From: an uncultured Polyangiaceae bacterium | GTDB taxonomy: Bacteria > Acidobacteriota > Thermoanaerobaculia > Multivoradales > JAHEKO01 | Length of the DNA stretch: 64,000 nucleotides | Direction: 5' to 3' | Assembly: GCA_964195975.1 (NCBI GenBank) | Contig: CAXMQZ010000126.1 | Span: 14,985-78,984, forward strand | Shown here: positions 8,997 to 41,342 of the stretch, in pieces | Layout of the letters: each line of letters opens with the position of its first letter | Numbering within the stretch: position 1 is the first letter of the stretch | Program-made: the position numbers and the translations under genes | Notes under the pieces: generated by a model | Told to the model about the DNA's origin: nothing | Seen by the model: the letters and a program-made list of their open reading frames with translations, nothing else | The model's database searches: none

Positions 8997-9022
8997 CTAG
9001 TACTCCCGGCCGGGAGTACTAG
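8997..9022. terminator. Perfect 26-bp palindrome CTAGTACTCCCGGCCGGGAGTACTAG. It is the likely bidirectional terminator between the convergent desaturase and mltD genes, and a solo copy of the repeat core found at 41068-41342.
   Basis: The palindrome was read directly from the sequence. Its right-arm CTAG supplies the TAG stop (9019-9021) of mltD. Confidence 0.5.
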
Positions 9023-10875
9023 TTGGGGATGGCCAATCGCTGGCCGGGAAAGATGGTGCTACGACGGCTCAGACCGTTGGCTTGCATGAGGCGGCTCAAG
9101 GAGACGCCCTGTCGCTGGGCAATCTTTCCCAGCGTATCCCCGCGACGAACCAGGTAAGTAGGCTTCGAGCTCCCACTGCCGGCGCTGCCGCCGGCTCGAA
9201 TCGTCAGGCGTTGGCCTGGTTGCAGGGTGTCGTTGCGAATCCCGTTGTCTCGTTTGATTCGATCCACCGTAGTTCCATACCGGTTCGCGATGATCCACAG
9301 GCTGTCACCACGACGGACGCTGTAGGTCATCTCGGTGCCCGGAGCCAAAGCCTTCGACGAGGAAGCGACACGAGCGCTGCCGGGCCGGCCATCGGGCACC
9401 TGAAGCTGTTGGCCTGGCCAGATTCGGTTGGCGCTGCGAAGACGGTTGACATCCATCAGGAGCCTCACGCTGGTGCCATATCTCGAGGCAATACCAGAGA
9501 GCGTCTCACCGCTACGAACGCGATGTACTGAAAAGCTGTTGGCCGGAGCATGATACTCGGGCAAGCTCGCCAAACTGGCCAGCAGAACGTCGGTCTGGCC
9601 AGTGGGTATCTTGAGGTCGTAGGGATCGCTTGGCGTGGCTTTGCGCCGCAGCTCTGGATTCAAAAGCTCGAGGCTGCCGGCCTCGAGACTCATCGCCTTA
9701 TTCAGATTCTTGAGCTCTGCCGATCGCTCGATCTCGGTCGTATCCCACTCCAAGGCGGGATAGGGCTCGGGGAGATCGAAGCCGTAGGCCTCTGGATCGT
9801 CCATGATGGTCACCACCGCGAGAAACCGTGGCACGTAGCGTCTGGTTTCTCGAGGTAGTTGCGCATAGATGTCCCAAAACTGATCGAAGTAGCTCTCTTT
9901 TTGACTTCTTATGCGCCGAAGCACGGCGTTTTCGCCACAGTTGTAGGCCGCCATCGCTGTCAACCAGTCACCAAAGAGATTGTGTAGATCGGTCAAATAC
10001 CCGATGGCACCTAGTGTCGCTTTGGAGGGGTCGAGTCTCTCGTCGATCCACCAGTCGCGCTCTAAACCGTAGCGATAGCCTGTCGAAGAGATGAACTGCC
10101 ACAGCCCTAGTGCGCGAGCGCGCGACATGGCTCGAGACTTGAATCCACTCTCAACGAGAGGCAACCAGCTGATCTCTTCTGGCAGCCCCGCTAGTCGCAA
10201 CTCTTCAACGATCATCGATCGATAGAGCCCCGATCGCTGATAGGACTCTAGAAAGAACTCTCTCTCCGGCCCCTGGAAGCTCTTGATCTCACGCTCTACA
10301 TAGTCGTTCATGACGCGAGGAATTTCGCGCGACATATCACCAACCGTGGTCTGTCGTGATGCATAGACCTCGACGATGCGGCGGGAGATCACCTGCCGGA
10401 GATCCTCTTTCTCTTGCTCGATCAGGGCATCACCGTTTGGCGGCACATCCGCCATCAGCTGATAGGCACGATCCAGCGCGGCGAAAGCGTCGACGAAGTT
10501 TCCCTGCTCCCAGAAAACCACCGACGATTGGTAGGCCTCCAACGATTCCCGGAGCAGGGTCTCCGGATCGAGCGGGACAGGCTCTGGAGCAAGCTCCGCC
10601 ACCTCTTCTGCGGCCAGGACCTCAGGCCCCAACGTTTCGTCGAGCTCGACGATCTCGATCGGTCCATCCGGCTTGGGCTCCTCGTAGTTGATGACGACTG
10701 CGGGTGGAGCCCCGGTCGTATCGCTTGCCGCCGTATTCGATTCTGTCGTGGCACCGCTCTTGACCGAGACCTTGCCGGAGCTGGAGCAAGCGCCCAGGAC
10801 TAGCGCCACCAAGACGGGGCCAAGCGCCACGAAGAACTTGCTGTTTGGAGCCAATCTTGGTTGGAGATTTCGCAT
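9019..10875 (-). CDS. mltD: Membrane-bound lytic murein transglycosylase D (SLT domain plus three C-terminal LysM repeats)
   Basis: It has the SLT active-site region (AMAAYNCGENAV) and three LysM repeats (HRVRSGETLSGIASRYG, YSVRRGDSLWIIANRYG, YLVRRGDTLGKIAQRQG). A signal/lipoprotein N-terminus is present. Confidence 0.85.
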   Translation of the reverse strand: MRNLQPRLAPNSKFFVALGPVLVALVLGACSSSGKVSVKSGATTESNTAASDTTGAPPAVVINYEEPKPDGPIEIVELDETLGPEVLAAEEVAELAPEPVPLDPETLLRESLEAYQSSVVFWEQGNFVDAFAALDRAYQLMADVPPNGDALIEQEKEDLRQVISRRIVEVYASRQTTVGDMSREIPRVMNDYVEREIKSFQGPEREFFLESYQRSGLYRSMIVEELRLAGLPEEISWLPLVESGFKSRAMSRARALGLWQFISSTGYRYGLERDWWIDERLDPSKATLGAIGYLTDLHNLFGDWLTAMAAYNCGENAVLRRIRSQKESYFDQFWDIYAQLPRETRRYVPRFLAVVTIMDDPEAYGFDLPEPYPALEWDTTEIERSAELKNLNKAMSLEAGSLELLNPELRRKATPSDPYDLKIPTGQTDVLLASLASLPEYHAPANSFSVHRVRSGETLSGIASRYGTSVRLLMDVNRLRSANRIWPGQQLQVPDGRPGSARVASSSKALAPGTEMTYSVRRGDSLWIIANRYGTTVDRIKRDNGIRNDTLQPGQRLTIRAGGSAGSGSSKPTYLVRRGDTLGKIAQRQGVSLSRLMQANGLSRRSTIFPGQRLAIPN

Positions 10876-11149
10876 TTCCAGGTTCGATATCGTGAAGGCT
10901 GCACTACGACGATAGGGCGTATTCTACTCATATAGCTGAAAAATGCAGTCAAATTCTCCACGGACCCTCACGGTAGCTTCAACAGGTGCGTCAGAGGGCC
11001 CTTCAAAAGAGTAGACTCCTGCGGTGTTTTCCGGCCACCAATCGCCCAAGACGGTTTCTCGAGATTTGTTCCCACCCGAGCGGGTGGCGCAAAAAAAAGT
11101 CGGTGTAACTATCCTGCCCGGGATACATTTTCAGCTACGGAGAAATCTC

Positions 11150-12376
11150 ATGAAACAACGCATACTGACCATATTGACTCTAATCTTTGTCGGCAGTGCA
11201 GGCATCGGCTTCGCGGAGGAGGAAGCAGCAGCGACCTCGTTGAAGGAAGCCATCACCAAGGGAAAGCCAATTCTCAGCTTCCGATATCGATACGAGGACG
11301 TGACCGATGATGCAGTCGGCGAAAAACACGCCCGGGCTTCTACCCTACGGACCGCTTTCGGTTACAAAAGCCTCCCCTGGAAGGGCTTCAGCGTTCTTCT
11401 TGAAGGCGAAAACATCGCCGCGATCGGCAACGACCTCTACAACAACGCCGGTGGAGGAAGGTGTGACAACAACGGCGTTAGGGATCGGCCTGTAGTTGCC
11501 GATCCAGCCTGCACAAACATCAACCAGGCCTATGCGCAGTATCTGATCGGGAAAACAAAACTCCAACTCGGACGCGAAGAGATCATCGTCGGGGACTCAC
11601 GTTGGGTTGGCAATGTCGGCTGGCGCCAGAACCACCAATCGTTCGACGCCTTCACCCTACGAAGCGACTCCCTCGAGTGGGCCAAATTCTTCTACAGCTA
11701 CGTCGACAACGTAAGTCGCGTCACCGGCGCCAACGCGCCGATGAAAACGAATCTGGCCAACGCCGGCTTCAAGTTGGGGAAGGTCGGCGCACTGACGGCC
11801 TACGCCTATCTACTCGACTACAGCCAGAGCTCCCTGTTTGGCAAGTCCACCAAATCATTTGGGTTGGAGTTTCTGGGTTCCTGGGAGATCAGCGATGGGA
11901 TCACTCTGCTCTACGAGCTCGAGTACGCCGATCAGTCGGACGATGGCGACAACCCAAACAAGATCGGTGCCGATTACAACTACATTCTGGCTGGAGTGAA
12001 GCTCAAACCTTTGACGATCCGAGTCGGATACGAAGTCCTGGGAGGCAATCTGGAGGATGGTAGCCTCAACACCCCTCTCGCGACTCTGCACAAATGGAAC
12101 GGTTGGGCCGACAAATTCCTCAATACGCCACCGAAGGGACTCAAGGATTTCTACGTGCGGTTGGACGGTAAGGTAAAGTCCATAATCTGGACGCTGCGCT
12201 ACCACGACTTCGAGTCCGACCAGGACAGTGAGCCCTACGGATCGGAGTGGGACGGCCAAATCCTGTACAGGACTCCATGGGATCAGGGCTTTGGCCTCAA
12301 AGGCGCAATCTACGACGCCGACGAGTTTGCCGCAGACACGAAGAAGTTTTGGTTCTTCACGACCTATAAGATTTAG
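11150..12376 (+). CDS. Outer-membrane beta-barrel porin-like protein
   Basis: I placed the start at the ATG at 11150, preceded by GGAG. The signal peptide is MKQRILTILTLIFVGSAGIGFA. Alternating amphipathic beta-strand segments run throughout. Confidence 0.5.
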   Translation: MKQRILTILTLIFVGSAGIGFAEEEAAATSLKEAITKGKPILSFRYRYEDVTDDAVGEKHARASTLRTAFGYKSLPWKGFSVLLEGENIAAIGNDLYNNAGGGRCDNNGVRDRPVVADPACTNINQAYAQYLIGKTKLQLGREEIIVGDSRWVGNVGWRQNHQSFDAFTLRSDSLEWAKFFYSYVDNVSRVTGANAPMKTNLANAGFKLGKVGALTAYAYLLDYSQSSLFGKSTKSFGLEFLGSWEISDGITLLYELEYADQSDDGDNPNKIGADYNYILAGVKLKPLTIRVGYEVLGGNLEDGSLNTPLATLHKWNGWADKFLNTPPKGLKDFYVRLDGKVKSIIWTLRYHDFESDQDSEPYGSEWDGQILYRTPWDQGFGLKGAIYDADEFAADTKKFWFFTTYKI

Positions 12377-12487
12377 CAATTGCTACATCACAGAAGACAA
12401 ATCGAAACTGACTCGTAGCGCCACTGCGAGGATCGCCCTAGCGGCGATCGATCGGATTCCATGCGATCCTGCTCACCCACTGCTGGA

Positions 12488-13366
12488 CTATGACCCTGGA
12501 TAGATCTCCAGCGTGATCGGCTGAGTCAGCTCTAGGTCGACCCGCGTTCCCGCGGGTACCTCGACTGGCTTTGCTTTCGTCTTCTTGGCGGCATAGGCGC
12601 CTCCCAGGCCGCCCAGGATCGCTCCTACTACGCCACCCTCTCCATCCTCGATCGCTTCTCCGATAATGGCGCCGCCGATTGTCGAGCCTCCGATGATCGC
12701 CGCATCTTTGGTTGTCTGACTCTTGCCCGCCTGGGCGAATTGAGCCGACATCGGGCGTCTCTGCCCCGACCCCAGATCGAGGGTTTCGAATTCAAGCGAG
12801 AGATGTGCTCTCCCGCCGATCTTCTTCGCCGGGTCGGCCTCGGTGACTCGACCAATCACCGTTGAGCCCCGTCTGATCGCCACTCGGCCTTCGGCAGCAA
12901 TGTCCTGAGTAATGGTGGCATAAAACTGCTGACCGACCTGGCTGGTATGACTAGATAGATGATCTTCGATCTCGACCCTCAAAACAGTGCCCACCGGAAC
13001 CGTCACTAGGACCGGTTTTGGCGGCGGAGGGGGAGAAACCGTGGCTATGGGAGGTGGGTACTGCGCATAAACAGGTTTGGGGCTCACGGGTCGTGGCGAG
13101 CTCGGGGCGGTTGGTCGAGGAGGTGTCACCACTGGTGATCGATACGGAACCGGCGTCACCGACTCTTTCGAGACCAAGGGGGCTGTCTCGACAGTCGAGA
13201 CATCTTCACTCGACACCAACGACTGCTCTGCCTCTTCTGCCGCCACCACCTGGTCTGCGGTTGCAATCGCGACTGTCTCCTCATGGCGACACCCACTGAG
13301 GACAACTAGCGCTGCACAGCTGAGAGCTAGAGAGAGAACTTGTTTACCTAGCGACTTGTGGGTCAT
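12488..13366 (-). CDS. Lipoprotein with a Pro-rich linker and a C-terminal glycine-zipper domain
   Basis: It has a lipobox (LSGC), a PPPP-rich segment and a C-terminal GxxxG zipper (IIGGSTIGGAIIGEAIEDGEGGVVGAILGGLGGAYAA). Confidence 0.55.
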   Translation of the reverse strand: MTHKSLGKQVLSLALSCAALVVLSGCRHEETVAIATADQVVAAEEAEQSLVSSEDVSTVETAPLVSKESVTPVPYRSPVVTPPRPTAPSSPRPVSPKPVYAQYPPPIATVSPPPPPKPVLVTVPVGTVLRVEIEDHLSSHTSQVGQQFYATITQDIAAEGRVAIRRGSTVIGRVTEADPAKKIGGRAHLSLEFETLDLGSGQRRPMSAQFAQAGKSQTTKDAAIIGGSTIGGAIIGEAIEDGEGGVVGAILGGLGGAYAAKKTKAKPVEVPAGTRVDLELTQPITLEIYPGS

Positions 13367-13604
13367 TGTGAGCTCCTTTTGTTCAATCTTCAGGATTAAC
13401 GCGTCCGACGGCTGTGAACCAGTTCACACTCCCACGCGTCCTTCACTCTAGAACTGCAATCCACGGGCCAAAAACTCGATCGGTTAGCCCAACCCGCGCC
13501 GGCTCAAAGGACTTCTCATCGACACCGATCCGGTAAGATCCTCCAGAACCACAGAGCGATCCAAGCGTATGACTATGTGGTAGCCGTGGAGGGATCAACC
13601 ATCT

Positions 13605-14768
13605 ATGTGGAACCGACTGGGAACGAGCCTCGCAGCAATTCTGATTGCGGCCCTACTGTCAGGGTCGAACTTGTCCTGCAACCGAGCCGAGCAATCGAAC
13701 GCCGAATCTGGTGACGGAACCTCTTCGAAAACCGAGAAGCCGGAAAAGAAAAAAAAGTTCTGGGGCAAGAACTCTGAACCTGTCGAAAAGGAAGAAGATC
13801 AGTCTGTCCCGGTCGAGATCACCGAGTTGAGCCGCGGACGGATCGAATCGATTCTCCGTTTTTCGACAAATCTCGAGGCCGAGAACGAAGTTCAGGTCAT
13901 CTCCGAGGCTGCCAGGAAGATTCGCAGCCTTCTGGTCGAGGAGGGCGACGATGTTCGGCAGAACCAGGTCCTGATCCGTCTCCAGGACGAAGAACAGCGC
14001 AACGAGATCGCTCGGGTCGAGAGCCAGCTGGCGAATGCTCGTCGCGAATACGAGCGCCGAACCAATCTCTATGGTCAACAGTTGATCAGCGAGCAAGAGT
14101 ACAACCAAGCGACCTACGATCTCGAGCAGTTCGAGATCGCCCTCAAGGACGCTCAGCGTCAATTGAGCTACACCGAAGTACGGGCGCCGATCAGCGGCAC
14201 CATCACGCAGCGAATGATCAACATAGGTGATCAGATCAGTGTCAATCAGCACCTCTTCGACATCGTCGACTTCGACTCGATCGTCGCTCGTATCTACGTG
14301 CCGGAGAAGGAGCTTTACCGAATACGGCCCGGGCAGAGCGCGAGAATTTTCGCCGACGCGGCAAGCGGTGAAGAGCGGTTTGGAAGCATCGACCGAATTG
14401 CGCCGCGCGTTGACCCCCGTAGCGGGACGATCAAGGTGACCGTCTCCATCCCTCGCAGTCAGGGCCTGCTGCCCGGGATGTACGTAACGGCAGAGTTGAT
14501 TACCGAGGTCCATGAAGATGCTCTCCTACTACCCAAGAGGGCGATCGTTTACGATGCCGATCAGATTTTTGTGTTCCGCCTAAAAGACGACTCTACGGTG
14601 GAACGCTTGCTGATCCGGCCAGCCCTCCAGGACCGCGACAACGTCGAGCCCGCTGGCACCCTCAACGAAGGCGACCGCATCGTCATTGCCGGACAAGCGA
14701 GTCTCAAAGACGGCTCAGAAGTCAGGATCGTGGGTGGTACTGCCCCGGTTGAAACAGCCTCCAACTAA
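13605..14768 (+). CDS. Efflux RND transporter periplasmic adaptor subunit (HlyD/MdtA-like)
   Basis: It has a coiled-coil hairpin and the beta-barrel motif EVRAPISGTIT. Its stop lies 3 nt before the RND permease start. Confidence 0.85.
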   Translation: MWNRLGTSLAAILIAALLSGSNLSCNRAEQSNAESGDGTSSKTEKPEKKKKFWGKNSEPVEKEEDQSVPVEITELSRGRIESILRFSTNLEAENEVQVISEAARKIRSLLVEEGDDVRQNQVLIRLQDEEQRNEIARVESQLANARREYERRTNLYGQQLISEQEYNQATYDLEQFEIALKDAQRQLSYTEVRAPISGTITQRMINIGDQISVNQHLFDIVDFDSIVARIYVPEKELYRIRPGQSARIFADAASGEERFGSIDRIAPRVDPRSGTIKVTVSIPRSQGLLPGMYVTAELITEVHEDALLLPKRAIVYDADQIFVFRLKDDSTVERLLIRPALQDRDNVEPAGTLNEGDRIVIAGQASLKDGSEVRIVGGTAPVETASN

Positions 14769-14770
14769 GC

Positions 14771-17700
14771 ATGGCTGACCTGTCCAGCTTCACGACTCGC
14801 CGTCCAGTGGCCATCACCATGGTCTTCGTGGCGGCTGTAGTGTTCGGTTTCTTTTCGTACGGTCGTTTGCCCGTCAATTTGATGCCGGAGCTCTCCTACC
14901 CCACCCTCACCGTACGCACGGAGTATCCGGGCACAGCACCCGAGGAAGTCGAAAATGACATAAGTCGACCGGTCGAGGAGGCTCTCGGTGTCGTAGGGGG
15001 GCTTCGCCGCGTCAGCAGCATCAGCCGTGCGGGTGTCAGCGATGTCGTTCTCGAATTCACCTGGGACACGTCGATGTCGCAAGCTATTCAGGATTCGCTC
15101 GAGAAGCTCGACCTGATCCTCCTGCCCGACGACGCCGAGCGACCGCTGATTTTGCGATTCGATCCGTCGCTGGACCCGGTGATGGAACTGAGTCTCTCGG
15201 GCGTTGGAGATCGGTACGAGGGTGAGGAGGGCCTACGTAGGCTACGGCGAATCGCCGACCTTCAGCTCAAACGAGCTCTCGAGCCGATCAAGGGCGTAGC
15301 TGCGGTGCGAATCCGGGGTGGCCTGGAAGAGGAGATCCATGTCCTGTTGGACGAGTACGAGCTCCGTCGCACCGATCTGGATATCCAAATCGTGATCGAT
15401 CGCCTGGCCCAGGAGAACATCAACATGGCTGGCGGAACACTTACCGAGGGGCGAACCGAGTACATGGTTCGCACGTTGAACGAGTACGAAAATCTCGAAG
15501 AGATCGAACGAACTGTTGTCGCACGCTTTGAAGATCGAGACGTTCGAATCGGTCAGATCGGAAGCGTGGTAAGAGCTCACAAAGAACGCGAAATTCTGAC
15601 TCGCACAAACGGTCACGAGAGTGTCCAGATCGACATATTCAAGGAGGCCGACGCCAACATCGTGGCCCTGGCGAAAAGAGTCAAGGCCGAGCTTGGCGAC
15701 TTCGACCTGGAAGAGGCCAGGAGTCAAGCTGGACTGAGCCTCGAGGAGAAGAAGGCACTAGAAGCCGAGAAAACGATCGCTGAAAAGAAGGCCTGGTGGC
15801 AGCGGCTGCGTAGGCAAAAAGCGGAAAAGCCACAGGGTCTGATCGAGCAGACCTGGATCAATGAGGGAGCCGACTTGGCCTTGGTCGCGGACCGTTCACT
15901 GTTTATCGAGAGCAGTATTACCGAGGTGCGCAATACGGCCATTCTGGGAGGTCTCCTTGCGGTGCTGGTGCTCTACTTTTTCCTGATGGATCTTCGCACC
16001 ACCGCGATCATTGCAGTGAGTATTCCGATATCTCTACTGGTTACATTCGCACCGCTCAACATGCTCGGTGTCAGTCTGAACATCATGTCTCTTGGGGGGT
16101 TGGCTCTTGGCATCGGAATGTTGGTCGATTCCTCGATCGTTGTTCTCGAGTCGATTTTCAGATGCCGCCAGGAGGGAGACAGTCTGGAAACCGCTGCCAA
16201 TCGTGGAACACAGGAAGTCCGCGGTGCGGTGATCGCTTCCACGATGACCACCATCGCTGTTTTTTTCCCAATGGTCTTTGTCGAGGGGGTGGCGGGCCAA
16301 GCATTCGGAGATCTCGGCTTAGCGGTGGTGATCTCGCTAATGGCATCGCTGGCTGTGGCCCTGTTCCTGATCCCGATGCTGGCCAGTAGAGAGGGCTTGA
16401 CCTGGACCGAGTCAGCTCCCATCGAAACTCATTGGGGAGAATTCACGGCCTGGCGCACCTTCCAAAACGACTGGATCGACTACTACAAGGTTCTTGGCTC
16501 CAGCAGTGGAGCCGGCAAGGCATTTCGCGTCATCGGATACCCGCTGGTGGCGGTCTACTTTTGTCTTCGCTTCTTGCTTGGGGCGATCTTCGAAACAGCT
16601 GGCAAAATCCTGCTCGCCGTTCTGCGAGCGATCCTATGGCTGACGCAGACGATCATTTTGCCAATGCTCCGGCGGATTCTTGGTGTCGTCATGATCCTGC
16701 CGCTAAAAGCGACCCAGTGGCTGCTCGATACCCTCCACAATATCTACCCACCAGCTCTTCGCTGGGCGCTGCGCAATCCATTGGCAATCTTTGTTTTGAC
16801 CATCGGTTGTTTTGTGCTCACCGGCTGGGCGGTGGCATCCCTCGACAGCGAGCTGCTTCCAGAGGTTCATCAGGGTGAGTTCACGGTCGAGATTGCATTG
16901 CCGGTCGGAACCCCGATCGAGTCGACCGAGACCATCGTGGCGCCAGTCGAAGCCGCAATCCTGGCTGAACGAGAGCACATCGAGGGGTTGGTTCTGACCG
17001 TCGGCTACGACGCAGCTTTTTCCAACCGCTCGGATGAAGGCGAGCATACAGCGCGGTTCAAGGTTCTTCTCGACCGAGCCGACCCACGAGTCGAACAACG
17101 AGTCATCAGACGCCTGCGACACAGGTTTGCCCAGATCCCCGATCTCAACGCCCGCATCTCGAGACCGGTTCTGTTCAGCTTCAAGGCACCGATCGAGATC
17201 GAGGTTCACGGGGACAACCTGATTCAGCTCAGACAGCAGGCACAGATCGTCGAGGAGACGATGGCGACCTTGCCCCAGTTGGCGGATGTCGAGTCGACCC
17301 AGCGCCGAGGAGCACCCGAGGTCCAGATCGTCTATAACCGAGATCTACTAGCCCGCTACCATCTGAATCCGGGACAAGTAGCTCGTCTCGTACGCGACAA
17401 GGTTCAAGGTTTTGAAGCCACTCGCTTCAATTTGAAGGATCGTCGGATTCCGATCGTTGTTCGACTCCAAATGCTCGACCGTGAGAGCGTCGAAGATGTC
17501 CGTGACCTGATCATCAATCCGGGCGGAGAAAAACCGATCCCGTTATCTGCCGTGGCTACGGTCGAGCTCGCCGAGGGCCCAAGCGAGGTACGTAGAGTCG
17601 ATGGCCGCAGAGTCGCATTGGTCAGTGCCAACATCGCTGACGGATCGTTGGGCAGTGCGGTGGATGCGATTCGAGACGAGCTCGATGCCCTTAGCTGGCC

Positions 17701-18307: not shown

Positions 18308-18325
18308 AAGAAGAGATTGCACCGC

Positions 18326-21499: not shown

Positions 21500-21567
21500 T
21501 TCGGCTCATGCGTCGACCCTGATCTGCTTTATTAATGCCGCCGGATCGTCTATAACTGTGCGCCGTC

Positions 21568-22752: not shown

Positions 22753-22765
22753 GAAACGCAGCAAA

Positions 22766-24034: not shown

Positions 24035-24036
24035 GT

Positions 24037-24765
24037 GTGAAGGACGGTTCGAGTTGGTACTCCGAGCGGCTGCAGCAGCAAATGCGAGTCGTACGCTGGG
24101 GACACTACGGCACCCCAGTCCTACTTTTCCCCACGGCTGGCGGTGATGCAGAGGAGTGCGAGCGCTTTGAAATGATCGAGGCGCTTGAACCCTTGATCAC
24201 CGAAGGCAAAATCAAGGTCTACTCCGTCGACAGCATCGCAGGGGCTGCCTGGGTCTCGGACCATCATGGCCCTCTGCACTGTGCCTGGCTACAAAACCAG
24301 TTCGACGCCGCGATCTACCATGAGGTGGTTCCCTCTATCCGAATGGACTGCCAAGATCCACGAATCGAGATCGTCGCCGCCGGAGCCTCGGTGGGCGCTT
24401 TCAACTCGGTCGCTTCGGTCTGCCGCCATCCCGATGTCTTTTCAGGCGCAATCGCCATGAGCGGCACCTATGATCTGACCGAGTGGCTCCATGGCGAGTG
24501 GAGCGACGACTTCTATTACTCTTCCCCGATTCACTATCTGCCAGGTCTTGAAGAGGGCGAACAGCTGCACCGCCTGCGCCAGCGGTTCATCTTTCTTCCG
24601 ACAGGAGAAGGCCGGTGGGAGGACCCTCAGCAGTCGTGGCGAATGGCCGAAGTTCTCGGTTCGAAAGGCATCCCCAATCGAGTCGAGTCATGGGGTCCGG
24701 AATGGGATCATGACTGGCCGACCTGGCGAGTCATGCTGCCCAAGTATCTTGCCGAGCTAGCCTAG
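24037..24765 (+). CDS. Esterase-family alpha/beta hydrolase
   Basis: It has VLLFPTAGGD and the serine-nucleophile motif GASVGAFNS. It lies 2 nt downstream of the ATP-grasp gene. Confidence 0.55.
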   Translation: MKDGSSWYSERLQQQMRVVRWGHYGTPVLLFPTAGGDAEECERFEMIEALEPLITEGKIKVYSVDSIAGAAWVSDHHGPLHCAWLQNQFDAAIYHEVVPSIRMDCQDPRIEIVAAGASVGAFNSVASVCRHPDVFSGAIAMSGTYDLTEWLHGEWSDDFYYSSPIHYLPGLEEGEQLHRLRQRFIFLPTGEGRWEDPQQSWRMAEVLGSKGIPNRVESWGPEWDHDWPTWRVMLPKYLAELA

Positions 24766-25728
24766 GAGCCCCAAGGCAAGTACTTGGCTCAACGCATCGA
24801 GACTCAGCCGAGCGCCACTCAAGATCAAAACCACAGTCTTGCCTTCGAAGCGCTGCCTGGACTTCAGAAGAGCCGCGACCGAAAGGGCCGCAGCTCCTTC
24901 GATCAGCAGGTGGTGTTTGGTCAATATCTCGGCGATAGCGTGCACGATCTCGTCTTCCTCGACCAGAATAAAGTCATCGATCACCTCTTGACAGATCGGA
25001 AAGGTCAGCGAGTCGACTTCGATGCCTCCAGCGGTTCCGTCGGCCAGGGTGGGCTGCGAGGCCAGGTCGAGGATCTTGCCAGCCTCGAGGGACTCGTACA
25101 TCACTTTGGAATTGACCGGTTGGCAACCGACAATCTCGATCGAGCTGTCGGCTGCTTTCAGATAGCCAGCGACACCGGCGGCAAGACCACCACCACCGAC
25201 CGGGATGAGCACGGTATCGATCCGCTCGAGCTGGCCTTCGAGCTCCAGACCGATCGTTCCCTGTCCTCCGATAATTTTTTCGTCGTTGTAGGGCGACACA
25301 AAGACTCGACCCGAGTCCTCGGCTACTTGGCGGGCAAAAACCTCGGTTTCGATGCCATCCTTGCCAAAAAACTTCAGCTCAGCGCCATACCGCTCGAGCG
25401 CTCCAATCTTGGCTTTGGACGCCGTCTCGGGTAGATAGATGACACCCGGCCAGCCGAATCTGCGCAGCAGATAGGCGACCGCAGAACCGTGGTTGCCGGA
25501 GGAGGCGGTAACGACACCCTTGGAGCGCTCCTCTTCGCTCAGCGATAGCATCCTGTTCGCCGCACCCCTGAGCTTGAAAGAACTCGTGGCCTGTAAGTTC
25601 TCGAGCTTTAGATAGACTTCGCAGCCCGCCCGATCACCGAGCCAGATCGACTCCTCAACCGGTGTGCGACGAATGTGCTCACGGATCCGCCCTTCCGCCT
25701 CCAGGACCTCTGTACGCACATCGATCAC
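24757..25728 (-). CDS. PLP-dependent threonine/serine dehydratase family enzyme
   Basis: The lysine motif SSFKLRGA and the Gly-rich loop GGGGLAAGVA are present. It is 323 aa. Confidence 0.8.
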   Translation of the reverse strand: MIDVRTEVLEAEGRIREHIRRTPVEESIWLGDRAGCEVYLKLENLQATSSFKLRGAANRMLSLSEEERSKGVVTASSGNHGSAVAYLLRRFGWPGVIYLPETASKAKIGALERYGAELKFFGKDGIETEVFARQVAEDSGRVFVSPYNDEKIIGGQGTIGLELEGQLERIDTVLIPVGGGGLAAGVAGYLKAADSSIEIVGCQPVNSKVMYESLEAGKILDLASQPTLADGTAGGIEVDSLTFPICQEVIDDFILVEEDEIVHAIAEILTKHHLLIEGAAALSVAALLKSRQRFEGKTVVLILSGARLSLDALSQVLALGLLG

Positions 25729-29108: not shown

Positions 29109-29217
29109 AAGACCTCCTCGGGTGGGTGGACGATCGTAGTCTATACGAGCACTTCACTCAGCTCCAGGTCGGAGTAGAGCCAACCTTGATCTGGAATCAG
29201 GATATCCTAGTGGGCCG

Positions 29218-30669: not shown

Positions 30670-30692
30670 TTTCCACCAGTCGGTTTCGGCCA

Positions 30693-33749: not shown

Positions 33750-33792
33750 GGCTCGAGCTCCGACTGTTCCAAACTAGCCACGACTGGTGAGA

Positions 33793-34452
33793 CTACTCCG
33801 CTTCGAATCCGGCCGCCGCGTGGGAGCCGTCACAATAGGGTCTATTTCGAGAGGCGCCACAACGACACAGCGCGCCCTTGACCCCACTTTGGGCGTCGGT
33901 ACCGTCGGCGGATCGAATCTCGATCGGGCCCTTGACCAGCAGGGGACCGTTTGGCGCGCTCGAGAGCTCGAGCCGTGCACCTGGGTCATCTCCTTCTCCC
34001 GGTGCCAGCATCGCCGTACCGAGAGAGCCATCGTCCGTGAATCCGGCCTCGATATGGCCGTTGTCACAATACGGTTTGTTCTTGGAATCGCCACATCGAC
34101 AGAGAGCAACACGATTCTCACTCCCCAGGGCTCCGTTTGGGAACTTGAAAACGATCTTACCTTCGACATAGACCGGTCCGTCCACGACCAGCCGGGCAAC
34201 GTTGGAGCTGGGAATCGGCTCTGCGTCTCCGCCATCCGTCCGCTCGTAGTGCAAGGCGCCGGTCGGACAATCCCAAACCACCCTCGCGACCTCATCTGCA
34301 TCAACCTGATCAGGCTCGATCCAAGGCCTTCGATTTGGGTCGAATGCTTCGGGTGATCCGTGCACGCACTTCTCCGCATGAATACACCGTGCTCGATCCC
34401 AACGGACAATCACATCCGCCCCTTCGAACTCGTAGATCTTCTTCTTCGACAT
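33793..34452 (-). CDS. Iron-sulfur protein with an N-terminal divergent 4Fe-4S domain and two CDGSH-type motifs
   Basis: The two motifs are CRCGDSKNKPYCDNGH and CRCGASRNRPYCDGSH. I placed the start at the internal ATG at 34452 (MSKKK), which is preceded by GGAGGG at a 6-nt spacing. The track ORF extends to 34656. Confidence 0.75.
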   Translation of the reverse strand: MSKKKIYEFEGADVIVRWDRARCIHAEKCVHGSPEAFDPNRRPWIEPDQVDADEVARVVWDCPTGALHYERTDGGDAEPIPSSNVARLVVDGPVYVEGKIVFKFPNGALGSENRVALCRCGDSKNKPYCDNGHIEAGFTDDGSLGTAMLAPGEGDDPGARLELSSAPNGPLLVKGPIEIRSADGTDAQSGVKGALCRCGASRNRPYCDGSHAAAGFEAE

Positions 34453-34667
34453 CAGTGACCCTCCATCTGCCTTGGGTAGGTCCTCAGGTAGATATTCACG
34501 CTGGTGCGCCTTTGTCTGCTCTCTTGCGACTCGACGGAAAGCATATCGATTCGTCGCATCACCTGCTTGGGCTCTTGATCGTATCCGGCTTGGTCGACGG
34601 AGACGGGTGAGATAGGGTCTCCTTCGACCACGGGATTCGCCGGGCAACAGACCCACCGGCGATCAAT

Positions 34668-35999
34668 ATGACCGGGAGAGACGAACAAATGTTTCGGATA
34701 GTCACAATTTTGATGATGCTGATCGGCCTCGGCCTGCCATCCGTATCGTTGGCAGAAGGCTTGACCGCGATCGAGAAACGAATAGTCGAACGGGTAGATA
34801 GCAAGGCCCACGAAGCGGAAATTTTTCTCGAGAGGGTGGTAAACATCAATAGTGGAACAATGAATCACTCGGGTGTCCGGGAGGTCGGCGCATTATACGA
34901 CCGCGAGCTCTCTGAGATCGGATTTCAGACCCGTTGGATCGAGATGCCCAAAGAGATGGCGAGAGCCGGACACCTGTTCGCCGAAATTGACGGTTCTGAG
35001 GGAGATCGCGTCCTGCTGATCGGTCACCTCGACACCGTGTTCGAGCCCGATAGCCCCTTTCAGACGTTCACTCGAAAGGGTGACCTTGCCTACGGCCCCG
35101 GCACTGAGGACATGAAAGGCGGCAATACGGTCATCCTCTTTGCCCTCGAGGCGCTGCACGAGGTAGGCGCACTGCAAGGAAGCCGCATCATCGTGGCTCT
35201 TACCGGAGACGAGGAGATGCCAGGCTCACCCCTGGAAATCGCTCGCAAAGACCTGCTCGAAGCCGGTCGGCGAGCCGACTTTGCACTTGGATTCGAGGCT
35301 GGCGTAAGAGACATCCACACCGCCACCGTGGCCAGGCGAGGCTCGAGCAGCTGGTCTCTTCGTGTCACCGGGACACCCGCTCACTCGTCCCAGGTTTTCG
35401 AAGATTCGATCGGTGCCGGAGCCATTTATGAAGCGAGTAGAATTCTCGACGCTTTCTACTCTCAAATCAGGGGTGAGAAGTATCTGACGTTTAATCCCGG
35501 GGTGATTTTGGGAGGAACAACAGTCGACTACGACCCCGAGGAACACCGGGGCTCTGCGTTTGGCAAATCGAATGTCATTGCCGAGACCGCTGTGATCGAC
35601 GGAGACCTGAGGTTCATCTCCGAAGATCAGAAAGAGCGTGCTCGTGAGCGGATGCGCGCCATCGTGGCCCAATCGGCCCCTGGTGCCAGCGCCGAGATCA
35701 CCTTCCGCGACGGGTACCCCGCCATGTCACCCACCGCTGGAAATGAGAAGCTACTAGGCAGGTTTCAATCGGTCAGCCTCGACCTCGGTTTCGGATCGCT
35801 CGAACCACTCGATCCGAGCCAGCGAGGCGCCGCCGACATCTCTTTCGTAGCCGCAGACGTCCAAGGATCCCTCGCTGGTCTAGGGCCTGTGGGGTGGTAC
35901 GGTCACACGGTCGAAGAGCGCATCGATATCGCCACCATGTCGGTGGTCACAAAGAAGGCGGCAATCTTGATCCACCGCCTCACACATCAATTGGACTAG
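34668..35999 (+). CDS. M20-family metallopeptidase (carboxypeptidase-G2-like), secreted
   Basis: It has a signal peptide, and the HLDTV, GTEDMKGG and GDEE metal-binding motifs. Confidence 0.8.
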   Translation: MTGRDEQMFRIVTILMMLIGLGLPSVSLAEGLTAIEKRIVERVDSKAHEAEIFLERVVNINSGTMNHSGVREVGALYDRELSEIGFQTRWIEMPKEMARAGHLFAEIDGSEGDRVLLIGHLDTVFEPDSPFQTFTRKGDLAYGPGTEDMKGGNTVILFALEALHEVGALQGSRIIVALTGDEEMPGSPLEIARKDLLEAGRRADFALGFEAGVRDIHTATVARRGSSSWSLRVTGTPAHSSQVFEDSIGAGAIYEASRILDAFYSQIRGEKYLTFNPGVILGGTTVDYDPEEHRGSAFGKSNVIAETAVIDGDLRFISEDQKERARERMRAIVAQSAPGASAEITFRDGYPAMSPTAGNEKLLGRFQSVSLDLGFGSLEPLDPSQRGAADISFVAADVQGSLAGLGPVGWYGHTVEERIDIATMSVVTKKAAILIHRLTHQLD

Positions 36000-36009
36000 G
36001 GTTAGTTCG

Positions 36010-36861
36010 ATGGACAGTCAAGGAATCATTCAGTCGATATTCGGAGTCCCCCGCGCCCTCATCGGCATGGTGCATCTCGGTGCGTTGCCGGGAACGCCTT
36101 CCAATACGGATCGATTGTCCGAGATCTGCCGAGCAGCGGTTGCCGAAGCTAAACAGCTTCGAGAGACCGGTTTCAACGCAATCATGTTGGAAAACATGCA
36201 CGATCGTCCCTATCTCAAACGGCAAGTCGGACCTGAGATCGTAGCCAGCATGGCGGTGGTCGGACAGGCGATTCAGGCAGAAAGCGGTCTACCCACGGGT
36301 ATCCAGGTCCTCGGCGGAGCCAATCACGAGGCACTGGCCGTCGCACAAGCTTGCGGCGGAAGCTTCATCCGAGCTGAGGCTTTTGTCTTTGCTCACGCCG
36401 CCGACGAAGGGTTGATGGAAGCCGACGCCGGAGACCTTCTCCGGTATCGCAAAGCCATCGGGGCAGACGACATCAAGATCTTCACCGACATCAAAAAGAA
36501 ACATGCATCCCACGCCTTGACCGCGGATGTCGATCTTGCCGAGACCGCTCGAGCCGCGGAATTCTTTCTGGCCGACGGAGTAGTAGTCACCGGGACCGCC
36601 ACTGGCAGAAGCGCCAACCCGAAGGAGGTCGAGATCATTCGACAGGCCGTCACCATTCCGACTTTGGTTGGCTCGGGTCTAAACCCCGAGAATCTCGCTC
36701 AATTTGCCAGAGCCGATGGGTTTATCGTCGGCTCCTCGTTCAAGCAAGATGGTCTCTGGTCGAACTCGCAAGACACCGCTCGCATGGAGACCCTGGTCAA
36801 GGCCTTCGAGGCCCTCGAGCCCCTGCAAGTCGAAACCCGCAAGGCTCATTCCGCAGAATGA
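36010..36861 (+). CDS. BtpA/SgcQ-family TIM-barrel protein
   Basis: The N-terminal region ALIGMVHLGALPGTP and overall similarity match BtpA family proteins. Confidence 0.65.
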   Translation: MDSQGIIQSIFGVPRALIGMVHLGALPGTPSNTDRLSEICRAAVAEAKQLRETGFNAIMLENMHDRPYLKRQVGPEIVASMAVVGQAIQAESGLPTGIQVLGGANHEALAVAQACGGSFIRAEAFVFAHAADEGLMEADAGDLLRYRKAIGADDIKIFTDIKKKHASHALTADVDLAETARAAEFFLADGVVVTGTATGRSANPKEVEIIRQAVTIPTLVGSGLNPENLAQFARADGFIVGSSFKQDGLWSNSQDTARMETLVKAFEALEPLQVETRKAHSAE

Positions 36862-37760
36862 CTCCCGATCTGGTTGTGTTAGGCAATCTCGCGGTCGACG
36901 ACATCGTCTATCCCGACGGCGAGAGTCGCATGGGACAGCCTGGCGGTGCGGCCATCTATGTCGCACTCGGGGCGAATCTTTGGGGACTGAATGTCGGCAT
37001 GGTCTCGAGGGTTGGGAGCGACTACCCTTCCTCGATGCTCGAGGCGCTATCCCGGAAGGGAATCGACCTTGCGGGCATCCGGGAGCTCGGATCGTCTGGA
37101 TTGCGTACCTGGCTGCTGTATGAAGGCGAGCTTCGAAGGGTTGTCCATAGGCTCGACAGCGCGACTCACGCCGAGGCCTCACCAACCGCTGACGAAATAC
37201 CGACCGAGTGGACTCCCCGAGCACTTCATATCGCTCCTCTGCCAATCGGTCTTCAAGCCGAGCTGGTGGCAGAGTTCGTCGAGCAGGCGGACGTCATCGT
37301 GTCGGTCGACCCCTACGAGTTACTTTCGGAGAGGACGCTCGAGACCTGGACTGGAATCGGATCGCAGGTCGACTACTTCTTCCTCAGTGAGGACGAGATT
37401 GCCGACGGGCAGTGGCGTCGGGACCCCGGGCCTCTTGTCGCCAGGATCACGGCCGGTAGATTGAAAACCCTCTTCTACAAACAGGGGTCGATGGGAGGGA
37501 CGGGTTTCGAGGCGACCACCGGGCGTAGATTCAAATGGAGCAGCTATGCCACAACCGTTGTCGACCAGACCGGTGCGGGTGACGCCTTTGCCGGTGGAAC
37601 CCTGGCCGGGTTGCTACAAGGCGACGGTGTCCAGACCGCGGTACACCGAGGGGTTGTCAGCGCCAGTTTTGCACTGGAGTCCCAGGGTGCCGACGCTCTT
37701 CTGGAGGCAAGGCCTGAGATGGCAAATGAGCGTTTGAGAGGATGGTTCGGAGACCTATGA
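36858..37760 (+). CDS. psuK: PfkB-family carbohydrate kinase, probable pseudouridine kinase
   Basis: The PfkB signature DQTGAGDAFAGG is present. It overlaps the downstream psuG by 19 nt, as in psuK-psuG operons. Confidence 0.65.
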   Translation: MTPDLVVLGNLAVDDIVYPDGESRMGQPGGAAIYVALGANLWGLNVGMVSRVGSDYPSSMLEALSRKGIDLAGIRELGSSGLRTWLLYEGELRRVVHRLDSATHAEASPTADEIPTEWTPRALHIAPLPIGLQAELVAEFVEQADVIVSVDPYELLSERTLETWTGIGSQVDYFFLSEDEIADGQWRRDPGPLVARITAGRLKTLFYKQGSMGGTGFEATTGRRFKWSSYATTVVDQTGAGDAFAGGTLAGLLQGDGVQTAVHRGVVSASFALESQGADALLEARPEMANERLRGWFGDL

Positions 37761-38659
37761 GACATCTCTCCATTTCTCCCGACATCGCTTCCGCTCTAGA
37801 GTCAGGCAAACCAGTGGTGGCGCTTGAAACCACTCTTGTCACGCATGGGTTCCCTCACCCAGAGGGTCTAGAGATCGCGCTGGAACTCGAACAGGCCATC
37901 CGCACTGAAGGTGCAACTCCGGCCACGATAGGGGTCCTTGACAGCAGCCTTAGAGTCGGCATCAGCGCCGATGAGCTCGAGACTCTGGCTCAGGCCCGAT
38001 CGGTGCCAAAGCTCAATCCAAGCAACCTCGCCGCAGGAATTACGACAGTGGGTATCGGGTCGACCACCGTCGCGGCGACGATGGTCGCAGCTCACCTCAC
38101 AGGAATTCACGTCTTCTCCACTGGAGGGATCGGGGGGGTGCACCGTAACGTCGCTGACACTGGTGACATTTCAGCCGACCTCATGGCACTCGGCCGCTTC
38201 CCGGTCGCTGTGGTTTGCGCCGGGGCCAAGGCGGTGCTCGATCTGCCCAAGACGGTAGAAGCTCTCGAGACTCACGGGGTTCCCATCTTCGGCGTAGGCA
38301 CTGATCGATTCCCGGCGTTTTATCGGCGGGACAGCGGGGTTCCGATCGACCAGGGATTCAACGACATCTCGCATTTGGCGAAGGCCGTCAGCGCCCACTT
38401 CGAGCTCGACATCGGTTCGGGCGTGGTAGTTGCCAACCCGATCCCCTTCGAGGCCGAGATGCCTGAGGAACTTTACGAGACCAGTCTCGAGCGGTCGCTC
38501 GAAGACCTGGCTTCGAGTGGCGTTCGGGGTCGCGAGGTCACACCCTATCTTCTGGAAAGGCTCCGTTTGCTGACCAAGGGAGAGAGTGTTTTTTCCAACC
38601 GCGCTCTGCTTCTCCACAATGCCAAGATCGCAGCGAGACTGGCAGTCGCCCTCGAGTGA
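37742..38659 (+). CDS. psuG: Pseudouridine-5'-phosphate glycosidase
   Basis: This is an indigoidine-synthase-A-like fold protein of 305 aa with GGIGGVHRN and VVCAGAKAVLDLPKTVE regions. Confidence 0.8.
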   Translation: MVRRPMRHLSISPDIASALESGKPVVALETTLVTHGFPHPEGLEIALELEQAIRTEGATPATIGVLDSSLRVGISADELETLAQARSVPKLNPSNLAAGITTVGIGSTTVAATMVAAHLTGIHVFSTGGIGGVHRNVADTGDISADLMALGRFPVAVVCAGAKAVLDLPKTVEALETHGVPIFGVGTDRFPAFYRRDSGVPIDQGFNDISHLAKAVSAHFELDIGSGVVVANPIPFEAEMPEELYETSLERSLEDLASSGVRGREVTPYLLERLRLLTKGESVFSNRALLLHNAKIAARLAVALE

Positions 38660-38672
38660 GGGATTCCGCCCG

Positions 38673-39695
38673 CTAACGAATCGGCACGCAAATGTTCGTG
38701 ATGAGTCGGTCCTCTGGAGTCATCCCAGGGTCGGATATCCACTCTTCCCACAGATTGCCGTTCTTCTCCAGACCAAACAAAGCGATGTAGGCATCAATCT
38801 TCTCGATCGTATCTGAGATTTCATCATAGGAACCGACATGGATCACTCGTATAGCCCTGCCAGCGTAGGTGTCGCGAACAAAAACCTGGGGCTCCTGGGT
38901 CGGTTCAGCCACCGGAGCCGCGATTAGTGGAATTCCCGCTTCGAAGTGCCACTCCTCCTCGGTGGCGAGCCTGGTGATCGCAAGAGGAGGACCTGACTGA
39001 TCCAGCTTGTACCTACCCATAAACGCTCTCACGTGGCTATAAGCCGTACCCAACGCTTCTGCGATGTCGTCTCGATCCCACGATGAATTGCCATCCGAGT
39101 AGGCCATCGGGACAGAGTCGACGATCACGATCTGTATATCCAACCCAGACCAGTCTGCGCCGGGCATGGATTCGGCAAGCTCTTTGAGATTGGCAAGGCC
39201 TTTGTCGTAGTCGGTGCCCACAATCCGATTGAACATAAGTCCGAAATATCGGCCCACTAGATCCCAACCAAACTCGGTGTCGAGACCCCAGGTGATCTCG
39301 GTGCCTGATTCGACCTCCACGAGCTTGAAATAGGCCTCGGCGGTTCCCTGCTGGCCGAGGTCGAGATGGGTGCGCACCGATTCGTAAGGCTCGCTAGCAA
39401 CGATCTCCTGGCTTCCCGAGCCCACATCACGTTGCTCGCTCGACCAGATCATCTTGGCTCCAACCCCGTAATCAGGTCCTTCGTAGCTGATATCTGCGTT
39501 TGGATCGCGCTCGTACCAGGGCGACCAGCGATTGAAGCCTCGGAACCCGTTGACCAAGACAAAGACCGTGGCTTGGGGTGCTTCGATGACGGTGGAGCGT
39601 TCGACGTGCGCTGAGCTCGGAAGAAAGACTCCCACCACTCCAAAAACCACCAGCAGCACCAATAGAAGCTTGAGTATCGCCTTGAGAACCTTCAT
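38673..39695 (-). CDS. Membrane-anchored SRPBCC-like plus GyrI-like small-molecule-binding domain protein
   Basis: I placed the start at the ATG at 39695 (MKVLKAILK...), preceded by AGGAAGG. It has an N-terminal TM anchor and a C-terminal GyrI-like region. Confidence 0.45.
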   Translation of the reverse strand: MKVLKAILKLLLVLLVVFGVVGVFLPSSAHVERSTVIEAPQATVFVLVNGFRGFNRWSPWYERDPNADISYEGPDYGVGAKMIWSSEQRDVGSGSQEIVASEPYESVRTHLDLGQQGTAEAYFKLVEVESGTEITWGLDTEFGWDLVGRYFGLMFNRIVGTDYDKGLANLKELAESMPGADWSGLDIQIVIVDSVPMAYSDGNSSWDRDDIAEALGTAYSHVRAFMGRYKLDQSGPPLAITRLATEEEWHFEAGIPLIAAPVAEPTQEPQVFVRDTYAGRAIRVIHVGSYDEISDTIEKIDAYIALFGLEKNGNLWEEWISDPGMTPEDRLITNICVPIR

Positions 39696-39838
39696 CGACC
39701 GGACCCTTCCTTTAAACGAGCGCAAACAATGAGGGGACATTCTACGCTTTCCGAATCCGACTTCTAATCAGAATCGAACATCTAACAGACAATTTCTTCG
39801 CTTTGCGGCTACACTCCCCTCCCGAGAGAAAACTACCG

Positions 39839-41071
39839 ATGCCCCGCCTGACGACTGCAGCTCTCCTGTTTACAGCCATGATCTTCGGCGCTCAATCCAG
39901 CCCTGTGGGTGCGCAAACTGAAGACGACCCGGTCGAGGCTCGAGCTCAGGGTGGAAAGAAGAACCGCAAGGAGCAGAATCGACCGATCAAGTTGGGGACT
40001 TCGGGCGGAAGTCTGAAAGACCGAACCCTATTCGGTAACTCGATCGCCTGCTGCGGTGGCACTCTCGGTGGTCTTGTCGAGAAGAATGGCAATCTTCATA
40101 TTCTCAGCAACAACCACGTGATCGCGCGCGCTAATAAGGCCAGAAGGGGGGAAGCAATTGCCCAACCGAGCTACCTCGATCAGACGCCCGCTTGCCAAGT
40201 ACCAGATGACTCAGAGATCGTGGCGAATCTGACGACATTCAAGAGAATCAAATTCGGGGGCACGAAGATCAACAGAGTCGACGCCGCAATTGCGAAAATC
40301 GTCCCGGGAACGGTCAATCTGAGTGGAAGAATCCTCAACATCGGGATACCAGGAACGACTCCTGTAGACCCTGCCATCGGGATGGAAGTCAAGAAATCGG
40401 GGCGCACCAGCGGTTTGACCCGAGGTGTCATTTTCAATGTCGACGCAGTGGTCGACGTTACATTTGAACAGGGTTGCGGAACCGACGTAGAGAAAACCGC
40501 CAGATTTGTCGATCAAATCTTGATCAGTGGCTCAGGCAAGAAATTCAGCAAGAGTGGAGATTCAGGCTCCATGGTCTACCGCAACGTGGCCAACTGTCCC
40601 GCGCCGGTCGGTCTGCTCTTTGCCGGCAACGAGTCCTTCACCGCTGCCAATCCAATCAAGAAAGTTCAGAACCAACTCGGAAAGCGGCGTCCAAAAGGCG
40701 ATGTCAACTTTGTAGGTTGCACCGCTTCGGCTGCGGCTACCTCTACGGATACGGCTACCTCTACGCAAGAGGAAGTAATGGCACAGGACGCAAGCGAAAT
40801 TCTCATGGCGGATCCAGAGGTCAGATTTGCCTCGCGGGTGCTGGCCAGAAGGCGACACCAGCTGATGACACCCAGCAATGTTTTTGGTATCGGCGTCGGG
40901 CTCAGCAGCTCGGGTCCAGCGGAACCTGTCATTCATATCTTTGCCGACCGCGACAAACCCGAGAGTTGGTCCGAGCTGCCTTCCGAGATCGATGGCGTCC
41001 GCACCGAGATCGTCCCGACCGGACCCTTTCTTGCCTATTGCGACGGCAACGGCGCTCCGAGTAGCAACTAG
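39839..41071 (+). CDS. Secreted chymotrypsin-fold (S1-like) serine protease with an uncharacterised C-terminal domain
   Basis: It has a signal peptide, and the H (LSNNHV), D (RVDAAIAKI) and S (GDSGSMVY) catalytic residues in the S1 order. Its stop TAG lies inside the left TIR of the downstream element. Confidence 0.55.
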   Translation: MPRLTTAALLFTAMIFGAQSSPVGAQTEDDPVEARAQGGKKNRKEQNRPIKLGTSGGSLKDRTLFGNSIACCGGTLGGLVEKNGNLHILSNNHVIARANKARRGEAIAQPSYLDQTPACQVPDDSEIVANLTTFKRIKFGGTKINRVDAAIAKIVPGTVNLSGRILNIGIPGTTPVDPAIGMEVKKSGRTSGLTRGVIFNVDAVVDVTFEQGCGTDVEKTARFVDQILISGSGKKFSKSGDSGSMVYRNVANCPAPVGLLFAGNESFTAANPIKKVQNQLGKRRPKGDVNFVGCTASAAATSTDTATSTQEEVMAQDASEILMADPEVRFASRVLARRRHQLMTPSNVFGIGVGLSSSGPAEPVIHIFADRDKPESWSELPSEIDGVRTEIVPTGPFLAYCDGNGAPSSN

Positions 41072-41342
41072 TACTCCCGGCCGGAAATACCGGAACGTTT
41101 GCGGATGGCAGTTGTGAGTGAGGTCCAGGAGCGAGGAGGAGTCGATGTGGGACATCGGCGACGATGAGAGACGCCGAGATCGCTCACAAGAGCGATCCGC
41201 CCCTTGGGTGGCGGCGGGATGGCTCCTGCGGCGGCGTTGCGACGACTCAACGATGGCACCGCATCGCCTGCGTCGCCGCGCCTAGCCTCGGTGCCATCGC
41301 GCTCGCCACAAACGTCTCGGTATTTCCGGCCGGGAGTACTAG
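41068..41342. mobile_element. MITE-like element: a 275-bp unit bounded by perfect 25-bp terminal inverted repeats (CTAGTACTCCCGGCCGGAAATACCG ... CGGTATTTCCGGCCGGGAGTACTAG)
   Basis: The TIRs are exact reverse complements, read directly from the sequence. The interior is GC-rich with no credible ORF. The core shares sequence with the solo palindrome at 8997-9022. Confidence 0.5.

Follow-up and report, generated by a model that had tools for sequence, protein, structure and literature searches.

The window analysed here, 64,000 nucleotides of contig CAXMQZ010000126.1 (GenBank assembly GCA_964195975.1) from an uncultured bacterium, carries two related repeats: a 275-bp segment at 41068-41342, bounded by perfect 25-bp inverted repeats, and a perfect 26-bp palindrome at 8997-9022 (CTAGTACTCCCGGCCGGGAGTACTAG; 28 bp with the flanking A/T). 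Both, and the core that they share, are as the initial annotation described them. They belong to a previously undescribed family of transposable elements of the miniature inverted-repeat type (MITEs), of the ordinary bacterial mobile-repeat kind; the 275-bp segment is probably a short transposon without coding capacity that has CTAG as its insertion site, and the palindrome a copy without its interior. As had also been noted, each repeat is intergenic to a convergent gene pair. The pair is a desaturase and an mltD-like gene in one case and an S1-like peptidase gene and a 62-aa gene in the other. The nearest named homologues are in Acidobacteriota and Thermoanaerobaculia metagenome-assembled genomes (MAGs), at 55-64% identity, which makes this phylum a probable one for the host. 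The features are as follows.

41068..41342, no strand: full-length MITE, CTAG counted at each end, 275 bp, non-coding.
41068..41092, plus strand: left terminal inverted repeat CTAGTACTCCCGGCCGGAAATACCG, 25 nt perfect, with an imperfect extension to 41104 that gives 38 nt.
41318..41342, minus strand: right terminal inverted repeat CGGTATTTCCGGCCGGGAGTACTAG, which in reverse complement matches the left one perfectly.
41077..41084: CCGGCCGG motif of the left arm, self-complementary, a direct repeat with 41326-41333.
41326..41333: CCGGCCGG motif of the right arm, read from the sequence.
8997..9022: perfect 26-bp palindrome, probable collapsed copy, made up of the terminal 9 nt, CCGGCCGG and the terminal 9 nt.
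41339..41364: putative older, degenerate collapsed copy CTAGTACTGCTGGTCAGAAGATCTAA, which adjoins the MITE and in whose right-hand CTA the 62-aa gene stops.
39803..41071, plus strand: S1-like (Nal1_C) peptidase gene, with its TAG stop at 41069-41071 inside the left terminal CTAG.
41361..41549, minus strand: conserved small gene of 62 aa, convergent on the S1-like gene and ending in the stop CTA at 41361-41363.
9019..10875, minus strand: mltD-like lytic transglycosylase gene (SLT and three LysM domains), with its stop at 9019-9021 in the right CTAG of the palindrome.
7903..8976, plus strand: fatty-acid desaturase gene, convergent on the mltD-like gene, with a TAA stop 20 nt before the palindrome.

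The 25-bp terminal inverted repeats of the 275-bp element were extended by a repeat finder to 38 nt (92%), and a 17-nt terminus is common to the palindrome and both ends of the element. The 15-nt core has exactly four matches in the window, all at repeat ends, compared with 0.16 expected when up to two mismatches are allowed; the 17-mer with up to three mismatches gave the same four sites (0.14 expected). The 275-bp element has several of the properties by which MITEs are recognised, among them a length below about 500 bp, terminal inverted repeats and no conserved coding capacity. The annotated lack of a credible internal open reading frame (ORF) stands in one respect and not in another. A minus-strand ORF of 139 aa (41068..41487), the sole long one, does span the entire element. 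Pfam gives no match for it, and reading frames and stops differ among the three full copies described below. No transposase had been seen in the window, and we likewise found no match to a transposase family in Pfam (E <= 1e-5) among its ORFs of at least 90 aa.

A search of genomes and metagenomes with the 17-mer brought up further copies as well as a sister family. A metagenome scan gave a full 275-bp copy in other flanks (L016:595-869), and a protein search with the translated minus-strand frame gave one more (L021:218-492, P0001), the sole extra copy found in this way. These two and the window copy are each exactly 275 bp long and 92-96% identical, and their flanks are unrelated. The metagenome scan also gave a 57-bp collapsed copy at L018, consisting of the two terminal repeats and a short loop, and there is a possible relative of about 92 bp at L020 (nhmmer E = 0.016). 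When the window and every related locus were searched with an nhmmer profile of the three full copies, no further copies came up in the window. In a scan of 185,579 species genomes, the 17-mer picked out at least four copies of a 242-bp element (L005-L008) in a MAG labelled Nitrospinota (K_2_bin.39). This element starts with CTAGTACTCCCGGCCGGAATTACGGTGACG, ends with ...AACAGGAGCACTAG and has the same 17-nt end as the window family; the two families are alike over about 40 nt at one end and over about 22 nt at the opposite one, no alignment is obtained for their interiors, and the ends of the Nitrospinota family are clearly imperfect and asymmetric. Shared ends around unrelated interiors are the pattern expected if only the transposase-binding ends matter. 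The occurrence of the same ends in MAGs labelled as two phyla hints at a horizontal spread of the unseen parent transposon. In a BLASTN search of 72,556 plasmids, the two element families returned chance matches only or none; in viral contigs, a 14-mer gave at least 120 chance matches in coding DNA, none reaching into the repeat, and two longer patterns gave no match. A full-text literature search with the terminal sequence returned unrelated primers only. The family is recorded here in poorly studied uncultured lineages.

Single 17-mer matches in other MAGs and metagenome contigs (L001-L004, L010-L015, L017 and L019) were set aside, as they resemble chance matches or, at best, do not lend themselves to proof. 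They include one match each in MAG contigs of Actinomycetes and of Proteobacteria, which may be decayed relatives or chance: in L001 (648-689) the 17-mer sits in a 42-bp unit bounded by CTAGTAC...GTACTAG, and in L002 (3770-3840) and L014 (3974-4045) the match to the palindrome covers 20 nt, with a second CTAGTACT about 50 nt away. A Logan contig with the S1-like gene (L022, ERR13301390) breaks off 29 nt into the terminal repeat, at window position 41096, which is consistent with a multi-copy repeat in that sample. In one Nitrospinota copy (L005:480-510), the end of the element lies 12 nt upstream of a TTG start that belongs to a DegT/aminotransferase-like gene, as judged from the translation. 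The copy puts an AGGAG near this start and may thereby provide the gene with a ribosome-binding site or with other upstream signals. Beside the full copy in L021 (492-727), an ORF that by eye resembles a serine hydrolase (GHSMG) starts only about 45 codons before the nucleophile motif; the insertion may have cut it short.

The presence of the 275-bp element varies between close relatives. A 5.6-kb JGI contig, L144, which encodes a member of the 90% cluster of the S1-like protein, lacks window positions 41072-41352 and is 96.7% identical to the window over 39280-41071 and 98.9% over 41353-45176. Its junction reads ...AGCAACTAGcagaag... (in a longer stretch, ...GAGTAGCAACTAGcagaagtaCTAatc...), with one CTAG. 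The S1-like gene of this strain has the same AAC TAG at its end, and 8 nt further on comes the stop of the convergent 62-aa gene (orthologue at 1801..1989). The copies at unrelated loci, together with this empty allele in a near-identical strain, bear out the earlier suggestion that the 275-bp unit is MITE-like and mobile. The 17-mer CTAGTACTCCCGGCCGG can serve as a specific probe with which to look for the parent element and to type strains by their filled or empty sites.

CTAG is found at both ends of every complete copy, that is, both repeats of the window, L016, L018, L021, L005, L006 and L008. The flanks read C-TA-G...C-TA-G in all of them, which a duplication of TA and one of 4 bp fit equally well. 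At six of nine loci (both window loci, L016, L020, L005 and L006), the TAG of a long ORF lies within the terminal CTAG; at L018, the repeat begins directly after a TGA stop. The window itself holds 95 CTAGs, 0.4 of the compositional expectation, 64 of them in predicted genes, 18 intergenic and 13 over predicted stops, so that 13 of the 31 CTAGs (42%) where an insertion would not disrupt a gene overlap a stop codon. As the loss of genic insertions alone predicts about 42%, the association with stop codons needs no extra explanation.

The initial annotation had stated that both repeats donate the stop codon of the adjacent gene. The TAG does lie in the terminal CTAG. However, the same stop is found in relatives that lack the repeats. 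The S1-like ORF encodes 422 aa (410 aa in the database version P0002, which uses another start codon), and its C-terminal length and TAG stop are the same in L144 and in L023, both without the element. In L023 (GCA_905148415.1; 70-75% nucleotide identity, gene order kept), both convergent genes have the same C-terminal lengths, the small-gene orthologue being 77 aa long, and the stops of the two genes overlap in a single gACTAGt (ACTAGT). At the other locus, the end of the mltD-like gene, GQRLAIPN-TAG, is common to the window and to L146 (82% aa identity, ending in AAC TAG) and L147 (80%, AAT TAG), neither of which has the palindrome. Because the relatives without repeats keep the same C-termini and TAG, the stops were not donated by the repeats. 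Judged by these alignments, the TAG stops at both window loci predate the repeats, and the stop codon is the target and not a gift. Since the TAG is older than the repeat at both loci, the repeat would have been inserted into the stop-bearing CTAG and have regenerated the stop. Donation therefore holds as a description of the present-day sequence, and its causal direction is reversed. For annotators, this means that a repeat-borne TAG is not to be taken as a truncation or extension of the gene; it is a by-product of target choice and selection.

Some further features of stop codons and CTAGs were seen. In L146 (4813-4834; GCA_905148415.1), a second CTAG lies 13 nt past the stop CTAG of the mltD-like gene (CTAGccgaacgaccggtCTAG), either by chance or as a very decayed remnant. 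TAG is the commonest stop in the window, in 22 of 46 predicted genes compared with 20 TGA and 4 TAA, which is unusually high for a bacterium. At 24757-24765, the convergent genes 24037..24765 (plus strand, esterase) and 24757..25728 (minus strand, PLP enzyme) overlap by 9 nt over a double CTAG (CTAGCCTAG), each taking its TAG from one CTAG of the double; this is a target site of the MITE type, empty here. The palindromic tetranucleotides of the window are strongly skewed relative to expectation (TCGA 3.75x, GATC 2.98x, TTAA 0.07x, TATA 0.23x, CTAG 0.40x), which may reflect restriction-modification or repair pressure.

The relation between the two window repeats can be given to the base. As CCGGCCGG is self-complementary, it stands in the same orientation in both arms of the 275-bp element, and deleting the 249 bp between the two motifs leaves 9 + 8 + 9 = 26 nt, identical to 8997-9022. 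In the 57-bp copy of L018, the junction lies in ACGTT, likewise a motif of both arms. Long inverted repeats are unstable, and the classical result of slipped mispairing in them is a deletion that joins short direct repeats at the hairpin base, which is how the interiors would have been removed, between the CCGGCCGG motifs in the palindrome at 8997 and between the ACGTT motifs in L018. The suggestion that the palindrome is a collapsed copy is thus supported both by the exact junction and by the 57-bp intermediate, and the pair provides a base-exact example of the decay of a MITE into a short perfect palindrome. The 26-mer keeps only 13-17 nt of each 25-38-nt terminal repeat, and it and the 57-bp remnant are probably immobile relics.

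Two other origins of the palindrome were considered and rejected. An excision footprint does not account for it, as cut-and-paste footprints are far shorter than the 18 nt of element sequence retained here, and the junction lies in an 8-nt repeat. An order in which the palindrome came first and the MITE was inserted later is at odds with the 57-bp intermediate and with the terminus of about 40 nt shared with the Nitrospinota family, which is longer than what the palindrome contains.

A solo perfect palindrome in the spacer of convergent genes, whose halves recur as inverted copies at the ends of a 275-bp unit that folds entirely as one long hairpin, could also be read as a repetitive extragenic palindrome (REP). 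The 26-bp palindrome would then be the basic unit and the 275-bp element an inverted pair (REPIN), spread via single-stranded hairpins by RAYT, an IS200/IS605-like tyrosine transposase. We consider this very unlikely. The palindrome consists of head-to-head half-sites with incomplete ends rather than of a recurring unit, and the 57-bp intermediate is a nested deletion. REPs are usually frequent, whereas the 64 kb of the window hold a single solo palindrome, with no other half-site at up to three mismatches, and about 30 kb of DNA from relatives hold none. The ORFs of the window include no Y1 transposase, and the imperfect, asymmetric ends of the Nitrospinota family, around an unrelated interior, fit derivatives of a transposon.

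The MITE explanation may extend to a second remnant. The segment at 41339-41364, which abuts the right end of the 275-bp element, matches the palindrome at 18 of 26 positions; outside the family, no other site of the window matches it as well. Over the 22 nt past its CTAG, 14 match, a score with a window-wide frequency of 1.9e-4, and an inverted-repeat pair also marks the site. In L144, the right half of this remnant is better preserved (CAGAAGTACTAA) and 10 nt (TACTGCTGGT) are missing.

These observations would be accounted for by a transposase that recognises terminal inverted repeats of about 25-40 nt and integrates the element into CTAG, duplicating either the central TA, in the manner of IS630/Tc1-mariner elements, which we favour, or all four bases, in the manner of IS5. 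With either duplication, every copy comes to be flanked by CTAG on both sides. Insertions into genes would be purged by selection, and an in-frame TAG is possible only at gene ends, so that survivors would concentrate at CTAGs that hold the TAG stop of a gene; there the duplication would rebuild the stop and leave the gene unchanged. At 41068, two convergent genes may ancestrally have shared or abutted one CTAG, as in L023. A first insertion would have separated the two stops, each gene keeping its TAG, and this older copy would then have collapsed and decayed to the degenerate palindrome at 41339-41364. In the lineage of the window, a new full-length copy may subsequently have entered the left CTAG of the older remnant, and the L144 lineage may have lost the 10 nt.

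Within the MITE explanation, we put an IS630-like transposase at slightly better than even and an IS5-like one at a sizeable minority share, since long conserved ends (25 nt perfect, about 40 nt across the two families) would suit the bipartite DNA-binding domain of the IS630/Tc1-mariner superfamily. IS630 prefers TA within CTAG and duplicates TA, according to Tenzen & Ohtsubo (1991) as cited in PMC2170065, and ISY100 requires only its 24-bp inverted repeats (PMC2170065). RUP of Streptococcus pneumoniae is presumed to be moved by IS630-Spn1, to which its similar repeats and its TA targets link it (PMC2229807). Like RUP and other MITEs derived from IS630/Tc1-mariner elements, the window element is a small non-coding unit with terminal inverted repeats of about 25 bp and an outermost TA; unlike them, it has yielded no IS630-family partner with matching ends, and its host lineage is another one, probably of the Acidobacteriota, while a MAG labelled Nitrospinota has a related family. 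It also differs from the bacterial MITEs treated in PMC2229807, which are mostly <200 bp and A+T-rich, in being G+C-rich and 275 bp long.

On the IS5 side, MITEPsy1 of Pseudomonas syringae inserts at CTAG or YTAA with 4 nt duplicated (PMC3189936), and such a duplication in our element would likewise give CTAG on both sides and rebuild the TAG stop. MITEPsy1 is, however, 100 bp long with 18-nt repeats that start with GGAAGG, whereas the window repeats span 25-38 nt and would start with TACTCC, and the two have no sequence similarity. IS870 and ISMt1 resemble the window element in their CTAG-specific insertion and in using the target TAG as a stop, as stated where PMC13630536 cites Fournier et al. 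1993. In these elements, the target TAG closes their own transposase ORF, whereas here the TAG of the host gene is preserved and the element is without an ORF. Correia/NEMIS, ERIC and YPAL are comparable in that they are dispersed and intergenic, form a long end-to-end hairpin and show filled and empty sites among close relatives (PMC2229807). They are unlike the window element in their high copy number, in their documented promoter, IHF-site or RNase III functions and in sequence; no promoter, IHF-site or RNase III function is evident for the window element.

Several points weigh against the interpretation of the family as CTAG-inserting MITEs. Only three full-length copies are known, all of them metagenomic, and the conservation of their terminal repeats is not significantly higher than that of the interior (p = 0.10-0.27). 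Neither an autonomous element with these ends nor a transposase was found in the window, the plasmids or the viral contigs. As CTAG is self-complementary, a duplication of it is indistinguishable from the outermost bases of the inverted repeats. The sole empty allele, L144, differs from the window minus the element by the 10 nt mentioned above and a few substitutions. With these 10 nt missing, it falls short of a textbook empty site, and this is where the duplication argument is weakest; L144 could be a deletion derivative instead of a clean empty site.

The position of both hairpins exactly at convergent gene ends had led to the proposal that they act as bidirectional terminators. Whatever their origin, they could have been selected for this or as stabilisers of the mRNA 3' ends of the convergent pairs. 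They are predicted to be stable whichever strand is transcribed, with -27 and -22 kcal/mol for the 26-mer and its flanks and with -171 and -161 kcal/mol for the 275-mer, and the palindrome at 8997 is unchanged in L145, a strain at 97% nucleotide identity. At this 3% divergence, however, the lack of any change in 26 nt has a probability of about 45% by chance. There is no T-run after either hairpin on either strand, and a terminator scan was empty there, whereas the collapsed copy of L018 adjoins a canonical terminator with a hairpin and a T-run, implying that the host uses ordinary terminators. Moreover, relatives lack the hairpin at both loci. The terminator proposal is thus not upheld, and selection of the hairpins for either function appears very unlikely.

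A related idea joins this one to the MITE explanation: CTAGs formed by overlapping or abutting convergent TAG stops might be recurrent neutral landing pads, with the collapsed palindromes kept as bidirectional 3'-end hairpins. We hold it to be improbable. If true, it would provide a route from MITEs to REP-like extragenic palindromes in lineages such as that of the window, with its 22 of 46 TAG stops.

The interior of the element (41093-41317) had been proposed as a structured small RNA, and it could also encode a small protein, with the inverted repeats merely flanking it. It is rich in G+C and folds somewhat better than shuffled sequences, and it contains a 46-codon ORF whose ATG, at 41145, has a Shine-Dalgarno-like GGAGGAG in front of it. 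The gain in folding is limited (z only -2.4), and no match to Rfam 15 was obtained, either at the gathering score (window and Nitrospinota loci) or at E <= 1 (40950-41450). In a consensus fold of the three copies with 106 predicted pairs, 0 were compensatory and 11 were broken. The stop of the 46-codon ORF is altered in L016, with mostly non-synonymous changes, no sigma-70-like promoter was found, and the Nitrospinota family keeps the ends with its interior wholly replaced. We therefore regard a small RNA or peptide as extremely improbable, and the proposal is not supported.

Elsewhere in the window, the minus strand at 49516-57274 carries a complete cluster of the aerobic CO-dehydrogenase/xanthine-dehydrogenase type, unrelated to the repeats, which comprises XdhC, a large MoCo subunit, a 2Fe-2S subunit, a FAD subunit, CoxG, a CoxE-like VWA protein and an AAA ATPase.

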